A stretch of 35,162 nucleotides of DNA from a virus (IMGVR_UViG_2859810971_000008:1-35162); one strand, 5' to 3'; counted from the first letter of the stretch, positions 1 to 9,953 are shown. The notes: a model not told the origin generated them from the letters alone. Numbers and translations: made by a program.

Positions 1-1158
1 ATGCTCACCGTTAAGCAGATTGAAGCAGCAAAGCCGAAAGAAAAACCATACCGCCTTCTCGATGGTAATGGCCTGTACCTTTATGTCCCTGTATCAGGGA
101 AAAAGGTATGGCAGCTTCGCTACAAGATTGACGGTAAGGAAAAAATACTGACCGTAGGAAAATATCCACTAATGACTTTGCAGGAGACAAGAGATAAAGC
201 ATGGACCGCGAGGAAAGACATCTCGGTTGGCATCGATCCGGTAAAGGCGAAAAAGGCTTCGTCTAACAACAATTCCTTTAGTGCGATTTACAAGGAATGG
301 TACGAGCACAAGAAGCAAGTATGGTCAGTAGGGTATGCGACTGAACTTGCAAAAATGTTTGATGACGACATTTTACCTATCATCGGCGGCCTTGAAATTC
401 AGGATATTGAGCCGATGCAACTGCTGGAAGTAATCCGCAGATTTGAAGATCGCGGTGCAATGGAGCGAGCCAACAAAGCACGCAGAAGATGCGGAGAGGT
501 TTTCCGTTACGCTATTGTCACCGGAAGGGCTAAATATAACCCGGCACCTGACCTTGCTGACGCCATGAAGGGATACCGCAAGAAGAACTTCCCGTTTCTT
601 CCTGCAGACCAGATCCCGGCATTCAACAAAGCACTGGCAACATTTTCAGGAAGTATCGTATCGCTCATTGCGACCAAAGTTTTACGCTACACAGCCCTAA
701 GAACGAAAGAGCTTCGTTCCATGCAATGGAAGAACGTCGATTTTGAAAACAGGATTATCACTATCGACGCCAGTGTGATGAAGGGACGCAAGATTCATGT
801 TGTCCCGATGTCGGACCAGGTGGTTGAACTTCTCACTACGCTAATCTCCATCACCAAACCAGTATCAGAGTTTGTTTTTGCCGGGCGTAACGATAAGAAG
901 AAGCCAATCTGCGAGAACGCGGTATTGCTTGTGATCAAACAAATCGGCTATGAGGGTCTGGAAAGCGGTCACGGATTCAGGCATGAATTCAGCACGATTA
1001 TGAACGAGCACGAATGGCCCGCTGATGCTATTGAAGTGCAACTGGCACATGCCAACGGCGGATCTGTGCGCGGTATTTACAACCATGCTCAGTATCTCGA
1101 TAAGCGCAGAGAAATGATGCAGTGGTGGGCGGATTGGCTTGATGAAAAGGTGCTGTAA
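1..1158 (+). CDS. intS: Tyrosine recombinase/integrase, P4 (IntS)-type
   Basis: 385 aa ORF starting at nt 1; N-terminus MLTVKQIEAAKPKEKPYRLLDGNGLYLYV typical of P4-family integrases, C-terminal catalytic region with conserved R..H..R..Y spacing (HGFRHEF...VRGIYNHAQY). Recalled as near-identical to KplE1/CPS-53 IntS, unverified. Confidence 0.9.
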   Translation: MLTVKQIEAAKPKEKPYRLLDGNGLYLYVPVSGKKVWQLRYKIDGKEKILTVGKYPLMTLQETRDKAWTARKDISVGIDPVKAKKASSNNNSFSAIYKEWYEHKKQVWSVGYATELAKMFDDDILPIIGGLEIQDIEPMQLLEVIRRFEDRGAMERANKARRRCGEVFRYAIVTGRAKYNPAPDLADAMKGYRKKNFPFLPADQIPAFNKALATFSGSIVSLIATKVLRYTALRTKELRSMQWKNVDFENRIITIDASVMKGRKIHVVPMSDQVVELLTTLISITKPVSEFVFAGRNDKKKPICENAVLLVIKQIGYEGLESGHGFRHEFSTIMNEHEWPADAIEVQLAHANGGSVRGIYNHAQYLDKRREMMQWWADWLDEKVL

Positions 1159-1514
1159 TCCTCATATCCAACCTAAGAGATATGCACAATTTTGTGAATA
1201 AGATATTGAGAATTAGCGAAAAGTTTTATTTTGCGTATCATCAATTCAGAATACAAAGTTACATGCTAATGTTCTGCATTGGTATCTTTTGCTTATCCAT
1301 GTCTACATTATCGCCAAAAAAATAGGTTTTGTCTATCAATTATTTGAATTACTTCCATGAAATTATAACGCACTTGTAATTTTTGATTATTTTTACCTCT
1401 CAAGTGTTTTGTTTCTTCTATCTCTTTGTATTTTTAGCGAAAGTATGCCATATTGCATTCTAATATAACGTGGCGTTGTTTCTGTTTAATGATTTAAATA
1501 GTTCAACATAATAT

Positions 1515-2690
1515 TTGCTAACAAATTATATCCAAGCAAATCATATGATATTATCATTACAATATATTAGAGGAATAGCATCATTACTTGTTGTTTTATT
1601 CCACTTCAGATTCTTGCTAAATGAGCACTACTCTCAGAAAGATTTGGGTGACCTATTATTTGGGAATGGGCTGTCTGGAGTTGATATATTCTTCATATTA
1701 AGTGGATTTATCATCGTATACTCAACAAGAAAGAAGGAAGTTAATGATACTTTCTCATTCTCAATTAGAAGAATATTTAGAATATACCCATTACTAATCA
1801 CATGCTGTTGCATGTATTACATAATAAACACTCAATTTCTAACCTATGCTACAGTTGAAAACTTTAGAACCTTGCTTATTTCCATCATTCCATTAAATAT
1901 AAACTGGAATGAAGGTGCTCCATTCTTTGCCTATAATCTTTTGTACCCGGCCTGGACGATAACATATGAAATTGGTTTCTATGTTTTTTTCGGGGTATCA
2001 ATGTCTATTTCGCATAAATACAGAACAATTATCTGTTCTGTTTTTATAATCATGGTGGTCTCATTTACACAATACTATGTGAATGGAAATATATCATTTT
2101 CAGGTGATGTTAGTGCAGGGTTATTTACAGATAACTGGTTATTAGGATATACAAATGTTATTACATCTCCAATGATGTATGAATTCGTTATTGGGATGTT
2201 TCTTTCTGAAATATTTATAAACATCAACGAAAGCAAAAGTATTAAAAGGATACTTTCAAAGTATTCGCTTCAAATACTATGGATTTCATGTGGTATATCC
2301 ATAATATTATTCATTATCCAGCGACCTTATGGGCATGGATTGAATGGATTTGGGACTATGGCGATGATACTTATTGCATCATCATTAGTATATGAATACT
2401 GCAATATAACACCCAAAATAAAAATATTTAATTTCCTTGGTGAAATATCATATTCTTTATATCTAATTCACGCCGTGATACTTGCTTTGTTCTTCTATTA
2501 TAAGGCAGACCTTGCTGAAATTGGCATAACTGGTGGATTTTCTGTGTTTTTTTCCTTGGTTATTATCTCAATAACTGCATCATATCCAATATATATTCTC
2601 ATTGAAAAACCAATGATAAATATAGGCAAACGTTTAATTGACAAGAGAAATAAGAGCATTAATAAAAAAGAAACCGAAATAACAGCGTAA
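1515..2690 (+). CDS. Acyltransferase family 3 (AT3) integral membrane protein; putative O-antigen/LPS O-acetyltransferase (lysogenic conversion). Alternative start at 1545
   Basis: 391 aa, very hydrophobic with multiple predicted TM segments; N-terminal motif YIRGIASLLVVLFHF and SGVDIFFILSGFII typical of the Oac/OafA AT3 family; strongly AT-rich codon usage unlike the phage structural genes. Confidence 0.75.
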   Translation: MLTNYIQANHMILSLQYIRGIASLLVVLFHFRFLLNEHYSQKDLGDLLFGNGLSGVDIFFILSGFIIVYSTRKKEVNDTFSFSIRRIFRIYPLLITCCCMYYIINTQFLTYATVENFRTLLISIIPLNINWNEGAPFFAYNLLYPAWTITYEIGFYVFFGVSMSISHKYRTIICSVFIIMVVSFTQYYVNGNISFSGDVSAGLFTDNWLLGYTNVITSPMMYEFVIGMFLSEIFININESKSIKRILSKYSLQILWISCGISIILFIIQRPYGHGLNGFGTMAMILIASSLVYEYCNITPKIKIFNFLGEISYSLYLIHAVILALFFYYKADLAEIGITGGFSVFFSLVIISITASYPIYILIEKPMINIGKRLIDKRNKSINKKETEITA

Positions 2691-2704
2691 TAATGACAAA
2701 GTTA

Positions 2705-2729
2705 GTGCCGGATACCCCGGCACTTTTTA
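2705..2729 (+). terminator. Rho-independent terminator after the first AT3 gene
   Basis: GTGCCGG-ATACC-CCGGCAC hairpin followed by TTTTT immediately after the stop at 2688-2690. Confidence 0.5.
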
Positions 2730-4102
2730 ATCAATTTCGTAAGTGACAGTGATTATCACCTCTGCATTATTACCCAAAACATTTTGATATATATTCATAT
2801 TACCTGATAATGTAGTTGCTCCAGTAAGAGTTATATAACTACTATTTGCATCAACCCTTGGAAGTAAAGCGGTAACTGCTGTTGTTAAATTATTATAGTA
2901 GCCTGTACTTCCAACATATGCAGCTTTATTGCTTGATACATATGGTAACCCTCCAATTCTGAAACCATCTCCTGACCCAATTAAAGTTATACCAAGGTGA
3001 CATATTGCTGTTATGATATTGCCACTCCTGACATAATTTCCTTTCTGCTGATAATATGTGGCATTACCACCTACAGTCGGAATCCAAACTCCAGTTTCTA
3101 TATCACCACATGACCAGTCTTCTGCTGTTGTTAGTTTTCCAGTAACAATAAATTTACTTCCACCACCAGAATTATAAGGAACAAAAATTGGATTTATTCT
3201 TGCATAAGTGTTACCGGTCTGCTCATTAAGATCATTTCTATCAATAAGAACTTGACCATTTTCGAAGTTTGAAATCTGGCAGTCTGTTACACTCCAGTCT
3301 CTTAACTTCACATCAGCATCCATGACACCAATAAGCTTACCAGCATTACCAATTTTTTCTTTATGCATATTTACATACACATTTCTTACCGTAACAGACT
3401 GAGGGAACAGATAATTAGCAGGATTAGTTTTATCACTTAAAATAGATATTACCCAAGGTCTGTATTGAGTACTTACTTCACAATAAAATCCATCAATAAG
3501 CGTTCCAGATGCCGCTGGTCCAAGTAGTATTCCACCTGTAGAGTGATGCGCACTACCTCCAATTACTCTCCCCTTAACGCAGTTAATATAGGCAAAATAT
3601 CCTAAATCTTGATTGTCATAGGCTGACATAGCACAGTCTCTAACTGTTACTCGAGAATTTCCTCCGTCATAAGCTGAGCCATCAGTTTTCTTACCAACTA
3701 TTGATATAAAGTTACCAATAGCAACTCGACTATAAAAAGTTTTTTATAACACCCCTCAATTAAAATATCCCAGTTTTCAAACTGAGCATATATATCATAA
3801 GAGCTGGCATTCCCATAATCTATGAAATCACAACATCTTATTTTCGGCGTATAAACGGCACTTTTTATCTTTATACCACCTAATGCTCTCTCCCCACCTG
3901 TGAATCTAATGCCAGTAACGGTGTAATCGCCTTGATAGAAATTATCTGCGGTAGGATTATTTTCGTCAGAATCATCACCCAATATAATAGCAAATTCACT
4001 CCCTGAATAATTAATTGTCGCCCCCTTATTTGAATATATAGTTACAGGTCTTATAAACTCCAAAGAATTACTTATTAGATACTCTCCATAAGGAAAAAAA
4101 TC
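2727..4102 (-). pseudogene. Tailspike/tail-fibre-like receptor-binding protein remnant (beta-helix-like composition), frameshifted and lacking a start codon
   Basis: Two ORF fragments (3698..4063 and 2727..3629) in different frames; the lower frame stays open upstream to 3743, so the break is in the A/T run at 3735-3746. The upper fragment has only a TTG start and is open upstream to a stop at 4103-4105. Gly/Asn/Thr/Ser-rich repetitive sequence typical of tailspike beta-helices. AT-rich. Confidence 0.4.
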
Positions 4103-4455
4103 TCAACTGGTGGTGAGTACTTTGGTCTGGAGTTTACGTAATTCATAATATTGATTACACCAACATCATAGATAATCGCCACCTTCTGGCGAGGAGCTCC
4201 TGATGCAATTAATCGCCAGGCCTACGCCCATTATTCAGGGGTAAATTTTGGACGGAGCCCCCAATTCCATCCTCAATTCTCCCTCGCACTGAGGAGTAGT
4301 AAGTGCAATTATTTAAAAAATCGCAAACAGAATATTATCATTTATTCTTGCATTCTGTTAATTAAAACCACACATAAAAACGTTGATACTTGATAAGTAA
4401 GTAGAGTATTATTAATGGTTTTAATAACGAACCTTTTAATCATGAGAAGCCTCAA

Positions 4456-5481
4456 ATGACTAGTACCAATAACATAACAAGAAAAAAAATGGATGGAGTA
4501 ACAATCTTAAGATTTATAGCTGCTTTTTATGTGTTTATTTTTCACATTAACATGAGAGTCCCCGTTAATTTTGGAGAGCTTATTAATAAAACCATTAGCA
4601 ATGGCGTCATTGGCATGAGTATTTTCTTCATGCTTTCTGGTTTTGTTTTGACTTATAATTACTATGGTTCCTTGTCAAACAATTACTTCAGGAAGCGAAT
4701 AGCAAGAATATTTCCAGCCTATTTATTTTGTGGGCTTTTAACCCTCCCATTTTTGTTATCCAGCGATGCAAGCTTTTTAAAAATGATTGCAAGCATATTC
4801 TTGTTTGTTACTGGAATGCAATCATGGATTTATCAGACCTTCGATTTTTGGAATTTTAGCGGTACCTGGTCAATATCAGTGGAATTGTTTTTTTATGCCC
4901 TGTTTCCATTTTTGATAAAAAACATCAACAAAAACAATGTAATTTACGTTTTACTTTTTTCATATTTATCTTCAGCATTATTAATCCCATTATCTGATAT
5001 AATTCAGGGACCTGTAGTTTGGTCCGTATATTACGCAACTCCAATATACAGGTTACCAGAATTTGTGGTGGGCGTCTGTATCGCAATACTTTTTTTAAAT
5101 GGCTATCGTGTTAACCATTATACATGGCTATTAAGCATTTTATTATTTCTGTATGCTACCACCCAGCAAAACAATAACTCCATGGGGGTGAACTATCTCA
5201 CAATTCCTGCGATATCAATTATGTTATTGCACCTGGCAAAAATCAACATCAAAAACAATATTGCAAACAGAGCGATCATTTACTTTGGAGATATAAGTTA
5301 TTCGTTTTATTTGATGCAATTACCTATATTATATTACCTGGATCATAATAAAAACTCATTTATTCTTAACTATGGTCTTTTTAGCTGGCTTGTACTTTTT
5401 GTTATTAATACTGCAATGGCATCATTATCTTATCACTTTCTGGAGAAGAACGATAAAATCAGAAAAATAATCACATCCTGA
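4456..5481 (+). CDS. Acyltransferase family 3 (AT3) integral membrane protein; putative O-antigen O-acetyltransferase (Oac-like)
   Basis: 341 aa; motifs RFIAAFYVFIFH, FFMLSGFVLTY, multiple TM segments; size and motifs resemble phage-borne Oac-type O-acetylases; AT-rich. Confidence 0.8.
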   Translation: MTSTNNITRKKMDGVTILRFIAAFYVFIFHINMRVPVNFGELINKTISNGVIGMSIFFMLSGFVLTYNYYGSLSNNYFRKRIARIFPAYLFCGLLTLPFLLSSDASFLKMIASIFLFVTGMQSWIYQTFDFWNFSGTWSISVELFFYALFPFLIKNINKNNVIYVLLFSYLSSALLIPLSDIIQGPVVWSVYYATPIYRLPEFVVGVCIAILFLNGYRVNHYTWLLSILLFLYATTQQNNNSMGVNYLTIPAISIMLLHLAKINIKNNIANRAIIYFGDISYSFYLMQLPILYYLDHNKNSFILNYGLFSWLVLFVINTAMASLSYHFLEKNDKIRKIITS

Positions 5482-5482
5482 T

Positions 5483-5508
5483 TTATTAGGGGGACCTCCC
5501 CCTAATAA
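5483..5508. terminator. Perfect inverted-repeat hairpin between convergent genes (possible bidirectional terminator)
   Basis: TTATTAGGGGG-ACC-TCCCCCTAATAA: 11-bp perfect stem between the AT3 stop (5481) and the tfa stop (5523). No clear U-tract on either side. Confidence 0.35.
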
Positions 5509-5522
5509 TACACCACATAATT

Positions 5523-5933
5523 TCAACGTATTATCTCTGGTCTTTCAGGCCAGGTTATTTCTGGCACTAAAGATAAATCCACTGACATTAAACTATTAAC
5601 ATATTCCTTCCATAATAAAAGATTGCCCTTGTTATTTTCACTTATAATACCGAGTAACAAATCTGACTGCCAGTTCATAATTAAACTATTAGCACTATCC
5701 AGCAGACACTGTCTTTCATTCTCTGCCTCACGAAGTAATTCATCATGTGTTTTTGGCGGCTGCGTAGGTGACGAAAGCTTTCCCTTATCATAGAACCAAC
5801 CAATTCTTACATTATCGGATACAGGTATAACTAACGCATTAGTTGGTTGCCAGGCACTCTCACCATCCCATACAGCAATATTGGTAACAACACCATTTTC
5901 AATAACGGCATAGTTCATCATGCATACTCCCAA
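5523..5933 (-). CDS. Tail fibre assembly protein (Tfa family)
   Basis: 136 aa; N-terminus [19 protein letters not shown]... characteristic of lambda/Mu-type tail fibre assembly chaperones; directly downstream of the tail fibre gene. Confidence 0.8.
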   Translation of the reverse strand: MGVCMMNYAVIENGVVTNIAVWDGESAWQPTNALVIPVSDNVRIGWFYDKGKLSSPTQPPKTHDELLREAENERQCLLDSANSLIMNWQSDLLLGIISENNKGNLLLWKEYVNSLMSVDLSLVPEITWPERPEIIR

Positions 5934-6933
5934 ATGATTGCAATACCAGCCATTCCGCTACCTCCGGCACGCTGCTGCGTCGCTCCACCGTAAACACAGG
6001 CGCCACCGCCGCCGCCGCCATGGCCATTAGCATTAATACCTTCGCCTACAATGGCTTGCGACCCAGCCCCCGCACCAAGGATTGAATCGCCTCCAGGCCC
6101 ACCAATCGCCAGACTGCCAGAAAACCGAATGCCTGGTGAGTTATAACCACTTCCGGATCCGATAATATTGGCACCTGTAAATCCCGGTTCAGTATATGCC
6201 CCATACGGACCAACAACCCCAGGAGCAGTGCCTTCAGCAAGAACATTCCCACCAAGACCACCTTTGGCAATTATGGTATTGCCGAAAGAGGTTGCTCCCC
6301 CGGGAGCACCAACCGACGCACTTGCACCAGTGCCACCATATCCTATTGTCACAGTAGTTACGGTTGGATTATCCACGCGAGCTTTAACATACTCCCCGGA
6401 CATCCCCCGCCACCACAAGCAGCATTATTGGGATAACCGACCTGACAACCACCACCGGCCCCACCACCACCAACAATTTCAACAATAATAAATCTTGTGC
6501 CTTTTGTCGGAGTGTATGTACCTGAGCTTTTAAACACCTGACACTGTATAAGCCTCCCGGAGCCATCTCCCAAACCAAGATTTTCGAGAGCCGTTTTCAC
6601 CGTGCCGTCCGATTTAATATCACCAAACGGATTCTTGCGGCTCAGGTATTCAACAGCAAACCCCGATCCCAGCAATTCAACAAAACCGGGCAGATCACCA
6701 TTATCAAGCACATCCCGTTGCGTTTTATCACTTACAAACTGGGCCAGAGCTGCAGCAATAAAGCTGGCCTGCCGAATAACCTTATTGACTTGCGCACTGG
6801 AGGCTTTCCCTGCTGTAAATCCGGATAAAAGCGCGGGCAACGCTTCCCATTCCTCCTGCGATATAACATTGGCATTTCGATCCGTTGCAAACGCTTTAAA
6901 GTCATTTTTCGCCATCAGAGTAATACTCCCCAT
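5918..6933 (-). CDS. Tail fibre protein, glycine-rich; interrupted by a 1-nt frameshift (two ORF fragments 6358..6933 and 5918..6418)
   Basis: N-terminal fragment [33 protein letters not shown]... is a conserved tail-fibre N-terminus; the C-terminal fragment is Gly-rich. The frames join if the 5-C run at about 6404-6408 were 6 nt. Confidence 0.7.
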
Positions 6934-7595
6934 GCTCCTACATCAAAACCACTGATGAATTCGTTATCCATATCAAAACCAAAAAATTTTGAGCCTTCCG
7001 ATGGGGTTTCCACCGAAGGTGTTTCAATGCCACCCGCCCATACCCCGGCAGCTTTTACTGTGAGATACCCCTGTTTAATTGCCGCAATTAACTCACGCGA
7101 TACATCTGAAATATCAGTATCAGGAAAGACCCAGACCGATATCGTCATGTCCTGGTTATCGACTATCTGCATTCGCAGCCCGGATCCTGCTGTTGCAGCG
7201 TCAAGAATTGCCGGAAGCGAATCATTCCGTCCATCCCAGTTATTAATCGCAATCTTCGCTTTAAGAATGACACGATAAGTTTCATCGCTGAGGTACATGT
7301 ATCCGGAATCAGGATCGTATGGTCCCTGCCATACCCCCTGATCATATCCAAGCCCGTCGGTATCCCAGCTGAAATAGACACCTGAGATAGGCTGGCTGAC
7401 AACACGGCTACGTCCGATCCACAATCCCAGAATGTCAAGTTGCACACCAACCGCAGAGTCAATATCAAATGCAGTAATCAGCCCTCTGGTGGCAGCCGCA
7501 ACATCAATAAGCGGCCGGGTCATCAGATCAACATGCGCAAGAAATTTAGGTTTGGTGGCGTGGTAGTTCGTGATTAGTTCGGTGTATTTGCTCAT
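6915..7595 (-). CDS. Tail/baseplate protein (P2 gpI / Mu gp48-like, DUF2313-type)
   Basis: 226 aa ORF between baseplate J and the tail fibre gene, the conserved position of gpI/gp48-like proteins. Family assignment by position and recalled sequence character. Confidence 0.55.
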
Positions 7596-7605
7596 GACTC
7601 CACCG

Positions 7606-8790
7606 TTATAACGATATTTTCCGGGGTACAGGACGCAGATTCGTTGTATCTGATATCAATGTTTGATGACGACAAAGCCCCGGGGATTTCCCAATCGTCA
7701 GTTCCTGAATATCGTAATAGCGTGCATTCCCGCCACTCACCACGCCAAGATTCGCCGGTGAGTAAATGCGACTTAAAAGGACCGAATCACCAATCGTCAA
7801 ACTATTGATATAGTCGGAAATAGCCTGCTGGATCTGCTGCCCTATCTGTGAGGTATAACCCGTAAAAACTTTTAATTTAATCCGGGCATAAACAGGCACA
7901 TCACTGGAACGCGAGAATTTGATTACATGGGGATTGCCGTATTTATCCGGAACCGTAACGGATGTTGTACCGTGAGTGGCTGTCCCCTGGCCTTTATTCC
8001 CTCTGATAGCCTGAGCAATATCCGTCACATCACCGCCATCCACAATTACAGCAACAGAGTGTGGCGGTAACCCGTTACCGTCCTCCGAACCAGTATCGTT
8101 TTCATAGAGTTTGTGGCGGGTTACACCGGTAACATTAGAAACAGCACCATCCAGTGCTTCAAATGGGGTTATTGATGGCAACGCAACACTTTGCGACTGG
8201 CGGATACGTAACTCAGCATCAGTTTCTGCCGGAGAGCCAACAGTAGCCGCAGCAGGATTAGTTACCGAAACCCAGCCACGGGTTGGCGTATTAATTTCAG
8301 TGATAGTTCCAGCCAGCGCCGCCACTGCACCACTGACGGAACATGTTGCGGTCGCCATCACTGTACCATCCACGCCGACCACCACTGAAGCAGGCAAACG
8401 CCATATCACATTATTACTGTCTTTCACGCTGCCATTAATGATGGTTGTTCCGGCAGTTCCTGTAAGAAGCAAATCAACCGTAGAGTTCGTCGCGCCTTTA
8501 CGTGAAATACCATTTATTTTCACGTTACTGGTCAGTGCAGCCCCATAGCCGGTTGCCGGTGAAAAACAGTTGTAGACAGTTATCGCCATATTATTGGCAT
8601 CATGAATCGCCAGCGCCATCAGAGCCACCATCTGGCCGTCTTTGCTGTCCGGTTCGAGGTAGGCATCACTGCCATAAATCTGCTGAAAATAGCTAATCAG
8701 GGTGCTGAGTATCGTCTGATAATCAGGCGCACTGATCCCCTCCGCGGTTACCTTTGCAGATAAACCGAGAGAATCAAGGTTCAGAGCCAT
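7606..8790 (-). CDS. Baseplate J-like protein (P2 gpJ / Mu gp47 family)
   Basis: 394 aa; position between the gp46/W-like and gpI-like genes; size and sequence character typical of baseplate J proteins. Confidence 0.8.
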   Translation of the reverse strand: MALNLDSLGLSAKVTAEGISAPDYQTILSTLISYFQQIYGSDAYLEPDSKDGQMVALMALAIHDANNMAITVYNCFSPATGYGAALTSNVKINGISRKGATNSTVDLLLTGTAGTTIINGSVKDSNNVIWRLPASVVVGVDGTVMATATCSVSGAVAALAGTITEINTPTRGWVSVTNPAAATVGSPAETDAELRIRQSQSVALPSITPFEALDGAVSNVTGVTRHKLYENDTGSEDGNGLPPHSVAVIVDGGDVTDIAQAIRGNKGQGTATHGTTSVTVPDKYGNPHVIKFSRSSDVPVYARIKLKVFTGYTSQIGQQIQQAISDYINSLTIGDSVLLSRIYSPANLGVVSGGNARYYDIQELTIGKSPGLCRHQTLISDTTNLRPVPRKISL

Positions 8791-9143
8791 TACGCCTCCG
8801 ATGTAACAGTCGTTATTCCATAGAGAGTGTCGATTTCAGCGGAAAACATGACACGTCGGGTCGTGGTATCCACCGTCGTATTGAAAGAGAGGATTGATTT
8901 AACGCCCTGCGTTTCGAGGATGCGCTTACGGATCGCCAGGTTGTAAGTTTCTGGTTTTTGCCTGCCCAGCACGGACTGGATCCACGGTGTTCCCTCTGTG
9001 GTATCAAGAAACCATTGCCCATACCACAATTCGAATCGCGTTTTCACAGCCTGCGCCACGGCCTCAGGCGAGTTAATCAGCCAGGTGTCATCACCGCTGC
9101 CAAAGGTGTAATCGCCATCGGCGTCTTCACGTCTGTATCGCAT
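8790..9143 (-). CDS. Baseplate wedge protein (GP46 / gpW-like)
   Basis: 117 aa ORF immediately upstream of baseplate J with overlapping stop/start, the standard gpW/gp46 slot. Confidence 0.6.
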   Translation of the reverse strand: MRYRREDADGDYTFGSGDDTWLINSPEAVAQAVKTRFELWYGQWFLDTTEGTPWIQSVLGRQKPETYNLAIRKRILETQGVKSILSFNTTVDTTTRRVMFSAEIDTLYGITTVTSEA

Positions 9144-9894
9144 CAGTTTACCCCGTCGGTACTGCTTCCACCACGCTGAACACCACCATGAGTGTGTGTA
9201 TCATCGATTGGCTTGCCATTAGCCTTCACGCTCCCCAAAAACTCAACAGCACCAGTGATTTTTGAAGCCACACCAGAAACCACAGACCCCACCATGCCCC
9301 CCATCCAGGTTAACAGGCCATGAATGGTTACTTTCTCAGAAAAATCAGCCAGAGGGGCAACCACATCAAGCCCCCGGGAGCAACAATTTTAATTTTCCTG
9401 GTATCAGGATTAAGCTCAAAATAGGTGCTGCCGTCATCACTACGCAACTGTGTGGCACTGGTATTAATACCGCTAATCTTCCTTGCCTGCGACTGGGGAC
9501 CGACAATACAAAACGCATCCGATAAATCATGCATTCTGTCATCGACCGGCTCCTGTATCCCGCCACTCTGCCACCAGAAATCAATACAACGATCGGCAAA
9601 AATCACCAAACATTCATCACCGGCTTTTACCGGAAAAGTCAACGTGCAGCCTCCGCCGCGCGGGAATACCACTGGCACATCCACCAGCAATGGGTAATTT
9701 TTGGTAATGCGGTTGCCGTCGTTATCAATTTCAACGTAACGGATAGCAGGCTGTACAACCGCCGTCACCGCATCAGGAGCGAATGACTGAACAATGCCAG
9801 GCAAGGCGACACGGATCTGGTTCTTTGTTGTTTCCCGTTCAGATTTGAATGTTTCAGCAAGGTCGCCGCTGCGGGTCTGGTCAGATACTGCCAT
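9143..9894 (-). CDS. Baseplate assembly/spike protein V (Mu gp45-like); interrupted by a 1-nt frameshift (fragments 9328..9894 and 9143..9364)
   Basis: 188 aa N-terminal fragment plus 73 aa C-terminal fragment in another frame; the frames join (…KIVAPGGLDVVAPLADFSEK…) if the 5-C run at about 9371-9375 were 6 nt. GGAG Shine-Dalgarno ahead of the ATG at 9894. Confidence 0.6.
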
Positions 9895-9912
9895 TTAGTA
9901 GGCTCCAGAAAG

Positions 9913-9936
9913 CAAAAAACCCGCCGGGTGGCGGGT
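9913..9936 (-). terminator. Rho-independent terminator after the moron gene
   Basis: Minus-strand ACCCGCC-ACCC-GGCGGGT hairpin followed by TTTTTTGCTTT, 18 nt after the stop of the 79-aa gene. Confidence 0.6.
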
Positions 9937-9953
9937 TCATTATTGAAGTTTCA

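Follow-up and report, generated by a model that had tools for sequence, protein, structure and literature searches.

How did one prophage come to carry two different membrane acyltransferase genes on either side of a broken tailspike gene, and what might their products modify? The question is raised by a viral sequence of 35,162 nt (IMGVR_UViG_2859810971_000008:1-35162), analyzed here over its full length and referred to as the window. Its left part holds an AT-rich island (1159–5520) in which two genes for acyltransferase-family-3 (AT3) proteins, termed AT3-1 and AT3-2, flank a remnant tailspike gene. The kind of system is well known: a temperate-phage AT3 O-acetyltransferase moron beside a receptor-binding gene. 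In Shigella and Salmonella, phage O-antigen acetyltransferases set serotype, phage sensitivity and antibody recognition; their counterparts in Escherichia coli are far less studied. Public genomes of E. coli B already contain the sequence under generic annotation. What is new is that the island resolves into two fused modules, each pairing a receptor-binding protein with a modifier, and that their junction is mapped; that the tailspike is shown to be a fossil; and that the restriction to serogroup O7 leads to a prediction of the substrate. The joint explanation that we consider probable is that two prophage ends, each contributing a receptor-binding protein and a surface-sugar modifier, were fused into a chimeric island, and that the modifiers O-acetylate the O7 antigen.

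An AT-rich island between integrase and tail-fibre genes

The G+C content of the whole island (1159–5520) is 0.332, compared with 0.506 for the remainder of the window (5521 to the end). Every 500-nt step across 1001–5500 falls between 0.30 and 0.38, whereas most of the remainder lies at roughly 0.45–0.58. These windowed values bear out what the initial annotation of this DNA had judged by eye, and its boundaries for the AT-rich region, 1159 and 5520, are accurate. That annotation had also described a lysogenic-conversion region between int and the tail-fibre genes, a view that our data support, with two acyltransferase genes opposite the late operon and an AT-rich region upstream of each. Both AT3 genes indeed lie on the + strand and the late operon on the – strand, and the upstream regions have G+C contents of 28.5% (1159–1544) and 36.2% (4064–4455). 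The functional unit is wider than the AT-rich DNA, extending leftward to the integrase gene (1–1158) and rightward to about 6642.

Some 50 complete E. coli genomes, including those of the E. coli B family (REL606, BL21 and NEB Express), contain the 4.36-kb island at about 99.4% identity. In these genomes it adjoins ybhB/bio and is publicly annotated as 'acyltransferase family protein' twice and 'hypothetical protein'. The prophage is heavily deleted in B and fuller in NRZ14408. In the window, the remainder is a prophage of the SEN34 / vB_EcoM-611R5 myovirus type. REL606 similarity jumps from window position 6435 to 22892; in the REL606 prophage, a deletion runs from the tail-fibre tip straight into a truncated gene with the annotation 'anti-CBASS protein Acb1 family', which is followed by terminase genes (11272–12030 of the locus).

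The island combines the ends of two prophages

The left part of the region, module A (1–4169), matches an intact P22-like prophage at argW of E. coli 2018-05-5CC with 97.8% nucleotide identity. In that prophage, argW is followed by intS, AT3-1 (381 aa), a convergent 649-aa tailspike gene with a head-binding domain, HNH, Arc and P22-type ejection proteins. The match stops at window position 4169, corresponding to tailspike codon 169. At the left end of module A, outside the AT-rich DNA, lies the + strand gene for an IntS-type tyrosine integrase (1–1158; PF00589, PF22022 and PF13356), with 99% amino acid identity to the integrase of phage Sf6 and 97% nucleotide identity to intS of P22-like prophages at argW. 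A variable slot begins at ~1159, similarity to prophages with other cargo ending at 1161 (T28R) and at 1195 (a P22-like argW prophage with an AT3-SGNH gene). In the closely related T28R prophage, which also has this intS at argW, the interval between tfa and int is empty; this empty slot indicates that the cargo is optional.

The right part, module B (4156–6642), consists of an invertase stub, AT3-2, a tail-fibre chaperone gene (tfa) and a tail-fibre tip. It is found on its own, without AT3-1 or the tailspike, at the end of a myovirus prophage in strain 8178, where the order is tail fibre, tfa, AT3-2, invertase pseudogene and the host gene pphA, and where the match to the window begins at 4156. 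The 8178 prophage is of the same type as that of the window and occupies another insertion site (pphA). In the O7:K1 strains IAI39 and CE10, 4156–6642 recurs at 98.4% identity on a different myovirus backbone, at ssrA. The chaperone gene (5523–5933, – strand; PF02413, E=2.6e-23), convergent with AT3-2, accompanies AT3-2 in all contexts seen. Next to it, at the right end of this mobile module, lies the C-terminal, receptor-binding part of the tail-fibre gene (5918–6642, – strand; PHROG and Pfam tail-fibre matches). The fibre gene is split in the window into overlapping – strand open reading frames (ORFs), 6358–6933 and 5918–6418, which match consecutive parts of one tail-fibre PHROG family. The split coincides with a –1 change in a C-run at 6403 (C5 in the window versus C6 in REL606, NRZ14408 and 8178), and reflects either a pseudogene or a homopolymer assembly error.

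What AT3-2 displaced can be read from the free phage vB_EcoM-611R5, which shares its backbone with the window from 6563 onward. Its gene order is Stf-tfa-[tfa'-Stf']-invertase, so AT3-2 stands where this phage encodes the alternative fibre half and the 5' part of its invertase. Of that invertase, the window retains a stub truncated at both ends (4156–4267, – strand), a remnant of ~112 nt spanning pinE codons ~135–172, the helix-turn-helix (HTH) part. The complete resolvase catalytic domain is absent. The stub is of the Pin/Gin type, with 85–87% nucleotide identity both to e14 pinE and to a phage DNA invertase, and is annotated elsewhere as an HTH pseudogene. In a megablast search of a phage collection with the island, only this stub matched.

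Module B thus corresponds in place to the invertible tail-fibre segments that are served by Gin, Cin and Pin (the G segment of Mu, C of P1 and P of e14), with a pinE-like stub left over. In contrast to those systems, the switch has been destroyed, and the alternative fibre half is replaced by AT3-2. In the IAI39/CE10 prophage at ssrA, genes for a type II restriction endonuclease, a cytosine methyltransferase and a GIY-YIG protein lie directly past the invertase stub (2905–6757 of the IAI39 locus), and mcrA takes this position in phage 689R6 and e14. A cargo hot spot thus appears to lie downstream of the invertase.

AT3-1 and AT3-2 are distinct members of the AT3 family

AT3-1 (1545–2690, + strand) lies in an ORF open from a TTG at 1515 (391 aa), and a probable RefSeq-style ATG at 1545 gives a protein of 381 aa. 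AT3-2 (4456–5481, + strand) encodes 341 aa. A hidden Markov model search, the check that the initial annotation had proposed for its family assignment, matched both proteins over nearly the whole PF01757 profile of 326 positions. AT3-1 covers positions 2–325 (E=3.5e-30, 105.6 bits) and AT3-2 positions 3–315 (E=3.8e-27, 95.6 bits), against a gathering cut-off of 31 bits. Both also match PHROG 3333, 'O-acetyltransferase'. PF01757 is the sole Pfam domain in each, with no SGNH domain. The two proteins share only 31% identity over just 83 residues, around the N-terminal motifs; hence, they are the products of truly distinct genes, as had been proposed.

Published work defines three AT3 motifs, R/K-X10-H, FFxISG and RXXR (PMC7448272, PMC9833829), and mutagenesis has shown them to be essential in OafA, OafB and Oac (PMC7448272, PMC9833829, PMC3467182). 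All three are present here. An R-X10-H motif in the first transmembrane helix (TMH1) includes R19 and H30 in AT3-1 (391-aa ORF numbering) and in AT3-2. FFILSG and RIFR follow at 59 and 86 of AT3-1 (same numbering), and FFMLSG and RIAR at 57 and 81 of AT3-2. Alignments of 60 homologues of AT3-1 and 48 of AT3-2 show no variation at the His, at the SG residues or at the first Arg of RXXR. The Arg of R-X10-H does not vary among the AT3-2 homologues and is at least 90% conserved among those of AT3-1; for the other motif positions, conservation reaches 90% or more in one or both alignments.

The AlphaFold model of AT3-1 (pLDDT 94.2, pTM 0.92) has ten long helices and a long TMH3-4 loop (96–133) that contains a short helix. 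As modeled, it appears to agree with the published AT3 fold of ten transmembrane helices and a long TMH3-4 loop (PMC9833829). Direct confirmation from the PDB fold library was precluded by the absence of AT3 entries, so the fold assignment rests on the helix count of the model. The best-probability PDB match, and the sole one at high probability (0.93), was human HGSNAT, which has been placed in the TmAT superfamily along with AT3 (PMC12423673). A search of BFVD returned one unnamed 637-aa match, and PDB sequence searches were empty for AT3-1, AT3-2 and the tailspike.

Both genes have relatives in comparable surroundings. In P22-like prophages, a protein 52% identical to AT3-1 is encoded between the tailspike and intS, and the gene for a homologue of AT3-2 (54% identity) adjoins a tail-fibre gene at the end of an Enterobacter prophage. 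Between the window and REL606, AT3-1 differs by 8 nucleotide changes, 1 of them altering an amino acid, and AT3-2 by 2 changes, none altering an amino acid. These numbers are small, and both genes look selectively maintained. In CE10, AT3-2 is annotated as two separate ORFs (7157–8183 of the CE10 locus), an apparent frameshift pseudogene; it is intact at the otherwise identical IAI39 locus.

The AT3 genes co-occur with the O7 polymerase gene

We analyzed 5,426 complete E. coli genomes, 97 of which carry the O7 wzy gene. The query was that of REL606, which has an O7-type O-antigen cluster with IS1 beside wbbD (PMC3446290). The O7 status of carriers was judged against 83 listed records of the 97, a list from which 7–8 carriers could not be assigned. 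At least 45 of the 52 module A carriers proved to be O7 wzy-positive, as did at least 52 of the 60 listed carriers of AT3-2, which is present in 66 genomes in all. No carrier of either was shown to be negative. By chance, co-occurrence with O7 wzy would be expected in about one genome. As far as could be checked, all carriers are O7 wzy-positive.

The association is not confined to the B lineage. It includes the intact P22-like prophage of 2018-05-5CC, strain 81 (with the 82%-identical tailspike described below), mouse isolates and the O7:K1 strains. It holds over three insertion sites and three prophage backbones, and it spans wzy alleles at 100%, 99.9%, 99.7% and 99.3% identity. As the O7 polymerase gene is present in every carrier that could be checked, we take the O7 antigen to be the likely substrate, presumably modified at two different positions. 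The simplest reading would be that the O7 antigen is the target of both receptor-binding proteins as well as the substrate of both AT3 enzymes.

Genomes of the BL21(DE3) lineage (NC_012971.2, C41, C43 and BLR(DE3)) have O7 wzy, yet they lie outside the complete list of 52 module A records, in which plain BL21, BL21-AI and REL606 are found. It seems that the DE3 lysogen lineage has lost the island, whose site adjoins the lambda attachment region.

Predicted function and alternative substrates

In the proposed mechanism, each AT3 protein would be made in the lysogen from its own promoter. Acetyl-CoA would be taken from the cytoplasm into the ten-helix transmembrane pore, and the acetyl group would be passed to the O-unit or polymer on the periplasmic face, a mechanism that has been described for AT3-only enzymes (PMC9558356, PMC9833829). 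Acetylated O7 antigen may then resist binding or cleavage by the cognate tailspike or fibre. The outcome would be superinfection exclusion and an altered epitope or serotype, as for Sf6 Oac and BTP1 OafB. We infer expression, acetyl donor, substrate and phage exclusion for both proteins, and we predict two O-acetylations of the O7 antigen that would block O7-specific phages.

A close parallel in gene arrangement is Sf6, where the tailspike, a terminator, oac and int have the order and orientation seen in module A. Sf6 Oac is likewise AT3-only, has the same motifs and is encoded between tailspike and int, like AT3-1. The two systems differ in that the Sf6 tailspike is unrelated in sequence to the one here, which is truncated and frameshifted, and in that the target is the Shigella flexneri O antigen in Sf6 and presumably that of E. 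coli O7 here. In the Salmonella BTP1/P22 family, OafB (GtrC family II) is an AT3 enzyme encoded beside a P22-like tailspike, and it shields the lysogen from that tailspike (PMC9558356, PMC4413052). Unlike the AT3-only proteins of the island, whose genes have no upstream GATC, OafB combines AT3 and SGNH domains in one protein and undergoes phase variation through Dam/OxyR. Two O-antigen modifications in one prophage have a precedent in SfII of S. flexneri, which carries gtrII and oacD (PMC9558356). SfII combines glucosylation with acetylation, however, whereas the island has two AT3 enzymes brought together by the fusion of phage ends.

Several points weigh against O7 acetylation. The association with O7 could reflect the host range of the carrier phages or shared ancestry, and many carriers are laboratory derivatives of E. 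coli B. The published O7 repeat unit is not known to carry an O-acetyl group. No characterised acetyltransferase is close: with Sf6 Oac, the only one compared directly, identity was 24% over 192 aa for AT3-1, and 40% over 50 aa in a further comparison. By sequence, the kinship of AT3-1 and AT3-2 to Oac appears to be at family level only, neither being a close relative, and no Shigella phage was among the tblastn matches to the AT3 proteins at E<1e-5. NCBIfam gave no named family for either. In a scan of the AT-rich DNA, promoter-like matches were at chance level, as was the one such site (4383–4412, a consensus match) in the AT-rich region between the invertase stub and AT3-2 (4268–4455, + strand). 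E. coli B makes no O-antigen (PMC3446290), and since both AT3 genes are intact there, their maintenance in B is uninformative on function. In the P22-like phage Kapi1, a putative acyltransferase encoded in the tailspike-int slot left the lipopolysaccharide (LPS) gel pattern unchanged when over-expressed alone (bioRxiv 10.1101/2021.04.09.439263); Kapi1 genes were not among the matches to window genes, so that the phage serves as an analogue by context only. The library searched contained nothing relevant on O7 acetylation, O7-specific tailspikes, the E. coli B island or these genes.

Some of these points would fit a different target. The AT3 proteins might acylate enterobacterial common antigen, colanic acid or capsule, osmoregulated periplasmic glucans, the LPS core or peptidoglycan, with the O7 link a product of phage host range. 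AT3-only proteins have many substrates (PMC9558356), the source names of the nearest relatives here are generic ('ExoZ', 'OafA/YrhL'), both genes are intact in rough E. coli B, and IAI39 and CE10, as O7:K1 strains, are capsulated. Yet each gene is physically linked to one encoding a receptor-binding protein, as in the case of Sf6 oac and BTP1 oafB (PMC9558356), and the link is to one O serogroup across different lineages and prophage backbones. A substrate other than the O antigen is, in our judgment, unlikely.

O7 acetylation remains our preferred reading. More tentatively, we suggest that two O-acetylations of the O7 antigen, both prophage-encoded and as yet undescribed, may exist in E. coli of serogroup O7, each modifier being mobile together with the receptor-binding protein that it protects against. 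Tailspike and AT3-1 would form one such pair. Fibre tip, chaperone and AT3-2 would form the other, hopping between unrelated myovirus backbones.

The tailspike gene is a fossil

Between the two AT3 genes, on the – strand, lie codons ~169–649 of a P22-like tailspike gene (2727–4169), encoding the β-helix and C-terminal domain and interrupted by two –1 frameshifts. The ORFs at 2727–3629 and 3698–4063 are a single gene split by a 1-nt deletion, and form one 445-aa ORF in REL606. Neither matched Pfam or PHROG; the identity of the gene comes from homology. Over its full length, the 445-aa protein is 56% identical to residues ~192–633 of the gp63.1 tailspike of phage St11Ph5. It is also 82% identical to a 648-aa E. 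coli prophage tailspike with a PF09008 head-binding domain and a PF12708 pectate-lyase-type β-helix. The AlphaFold model of the remnant (pLDDT 87.8) is all-β, and its top PDB matches in Foldseek were the tailspikes of Det7, HK620, CBA120, Sf6 and P22, with E down to 1.6e-11. Homology and modeled fold agree, then, with the earlier description of a tailspike-like remnant.

The similarity to St11Ph5 gp63.1 covers the whole receptor-binding part of the remnant. St11Ph5 is a virulent N4-like (G7C-like) podovirus, and its tailspike has a different N-terminal adaptor. It was predicted by its authors to be a lyase (PMC6393563), and the isolation host of the phage is O5ab, not O7 (PMC5764931). The P22-like argW prophage with the 82%-identical tailspike has in its slot a gene for a 666-aa AT3-SGNH protein (10008–12008 of that locus) rather than the AT3-only AT3-1. 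Related tailspikes are therefore paired with acetyltransferases of different architecture.

Three lesions separate the remnant from a working gene. The head-binding domain (PF09008), present in intact relatives, is gone: codons 1–168 are lost, and similarity to the intact 649-aa gene begins at codon 169. A –1 frameshift that changes T8 to T7 on the coding strand (the + strand A-run at 4094–4100) is common to the window and REL606/E. coli B. It cuts off codons 169–203, and the 445-aa ORF then begins at an internal TTG. A further –1 frameshift, T7 to T6 on the + strand at 3740–3745 (codon 107 of the 445-aa ORF), is found in this window only. Single-base homopolymer differences from relatives occur at 1218, 2709, 3740–3745 and 6403 of the window, and some may be assembly errors. 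Sequencing error as the whole cause of the disruption was rejected, given that one of the two frameshifts is shared by independently sequenced E. coli B genomes. Apart from the frameshifts, the window and REL606 tailspikes differ by 7 substitutions, 3 of them amino acid-changing.

It could be argued that the 445-aa piece is functional, as a free O-antigen depolymerase or as a second receptor-binding protein borrowed by the myovirus, and that the frameshift private to the window is a sequencing error. About 50 genomes have the 445-aa ORF intact (its cluster counts 200 member sequences), the model folds confidently with a complete β-helix and C-terminal domain, and the homopolymer differences of the window resemble an assembly-error pattern. 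But the ORF has no particle-binding domain, and its internal TTG start has no ribosome-binding sequence nearby. Moreover, the T8-to-T7 frameshift common to the window and E. coli B severs codons 169–203, and the share of amino acid-changing substitutions (3/7) exceeds that of AT3-1 (1/8). A working tailspike is therefore improbable. We conclude that the gene is a fossil that has decayed since losing its head-binding domain. A decaying tailspike between maintained AT3 genes would fit the substitution pattern, in which the numbers are small. With its partner tailspike dead, AT3-1 is now an orphan in this prophage. AT3-2 still has a tail-fibre tip as its neighbour, although the fibre gene of the window carries the –1 change noted above.

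The two modules meet at a 10-bp microhomology

Three-way sequence comparison placed the junction of the modules at 4160–4169, where CCAACATCAT is common to the tailspike parent and the invertase parent. Such an overlap is a signature of microhomology-mediated illegitimate recombination. Such an event at the 10-bp microhomology would have joined the invertase stub to tailspike codon 169, deleting the head-binding domain in the same step.

The slot that received the island is familiar from E. coli K-12. In CPS-53 (KpLE1), the order is argW-intS-yfdG-yfdH-yfdI(gtrABS)-tfaS; the integrase is of the same family, and the initial annotation, in its comparison with this prophage, correctly placed the island in the same int-to-tail-fibre slot. 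CPS-53 has a three-gene glucosylation cassette there, compared with two single-gene acyltransferases and a tailspike fossil in the window. Among the scanned island ORFs (which excluded those of 40–60 aa), none had a Pfam or PHROG match to the GtrA flippase, the GtrB bactoprenol glucosyltransferase or GtrC. The further proposal that one conversion cassette with two AT3 genes, a co-adapted enzyme pair, replaced gtrABS as a unit is very improbable: both genes do lie within the slot that holds gtrABS in CPS-53 and co-occur at about 99.4% identity in about 50 genomes, but they come from two phage lineages and each occurs without the other in its own native context, the scar between them fuses a truncated invertase to a truncated tailspike at a microhomology, and a related prophage with the same intS has an empty slot.

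Regulatory sequences and other features of the window

The AT-rich region upstream of AT3-1 (1159–1544, + strand), its presumed promoter region, contains no GATC site, and none is present in 4064–4455, upstream of AT3-2. Phase variation of the Dam/OxyR type known from Gtr systems and oafB was considered and rejected, its signature of upstream GATC sites being absent from both genes. A terminator scan found a G+C-rich hairpin followed by a T-run at 2704–2724, directly after AT3-1 and between the convergent AT3-1 and tailspike genes. This is the position of the annotated Sf6 terminator, between tailspike and oac. The hairpin stem has one G fewer than in REL606 and NRZ14408 (GCCGGG to GCCGG), a loss that slightly weakens the predicted terminator.

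Outside the island, a second AT-rich dip (10001–10500, G+C 0.386) occurs in the baseplate/tail region, around ORFs at 9928–10236 (+ strand) and 10247–10657 (– strand). It may be another inserted moron. No Rfam family was found anywhere in the window, and a PADLOC search for defence systems gave no match.

Implications for O7 E. coli

The island is an example of how conversion islands grow: two prophage ends of one integrase family have been fused, leaving a datable tailspike fossil. The substrate prediction concerns genes carried by standard strains, REL606 and BL21. If it is true, most natural O7 strains, among them the forebears of E. coli B/BL21 and two O7:K1 meningitis strains, IAI39 and CE10, would have on their surface an O7 antigen that differs chemically from the textbook structure, with consequences for phage susceptibility, serology and the design of glycoconjugate vaccines.

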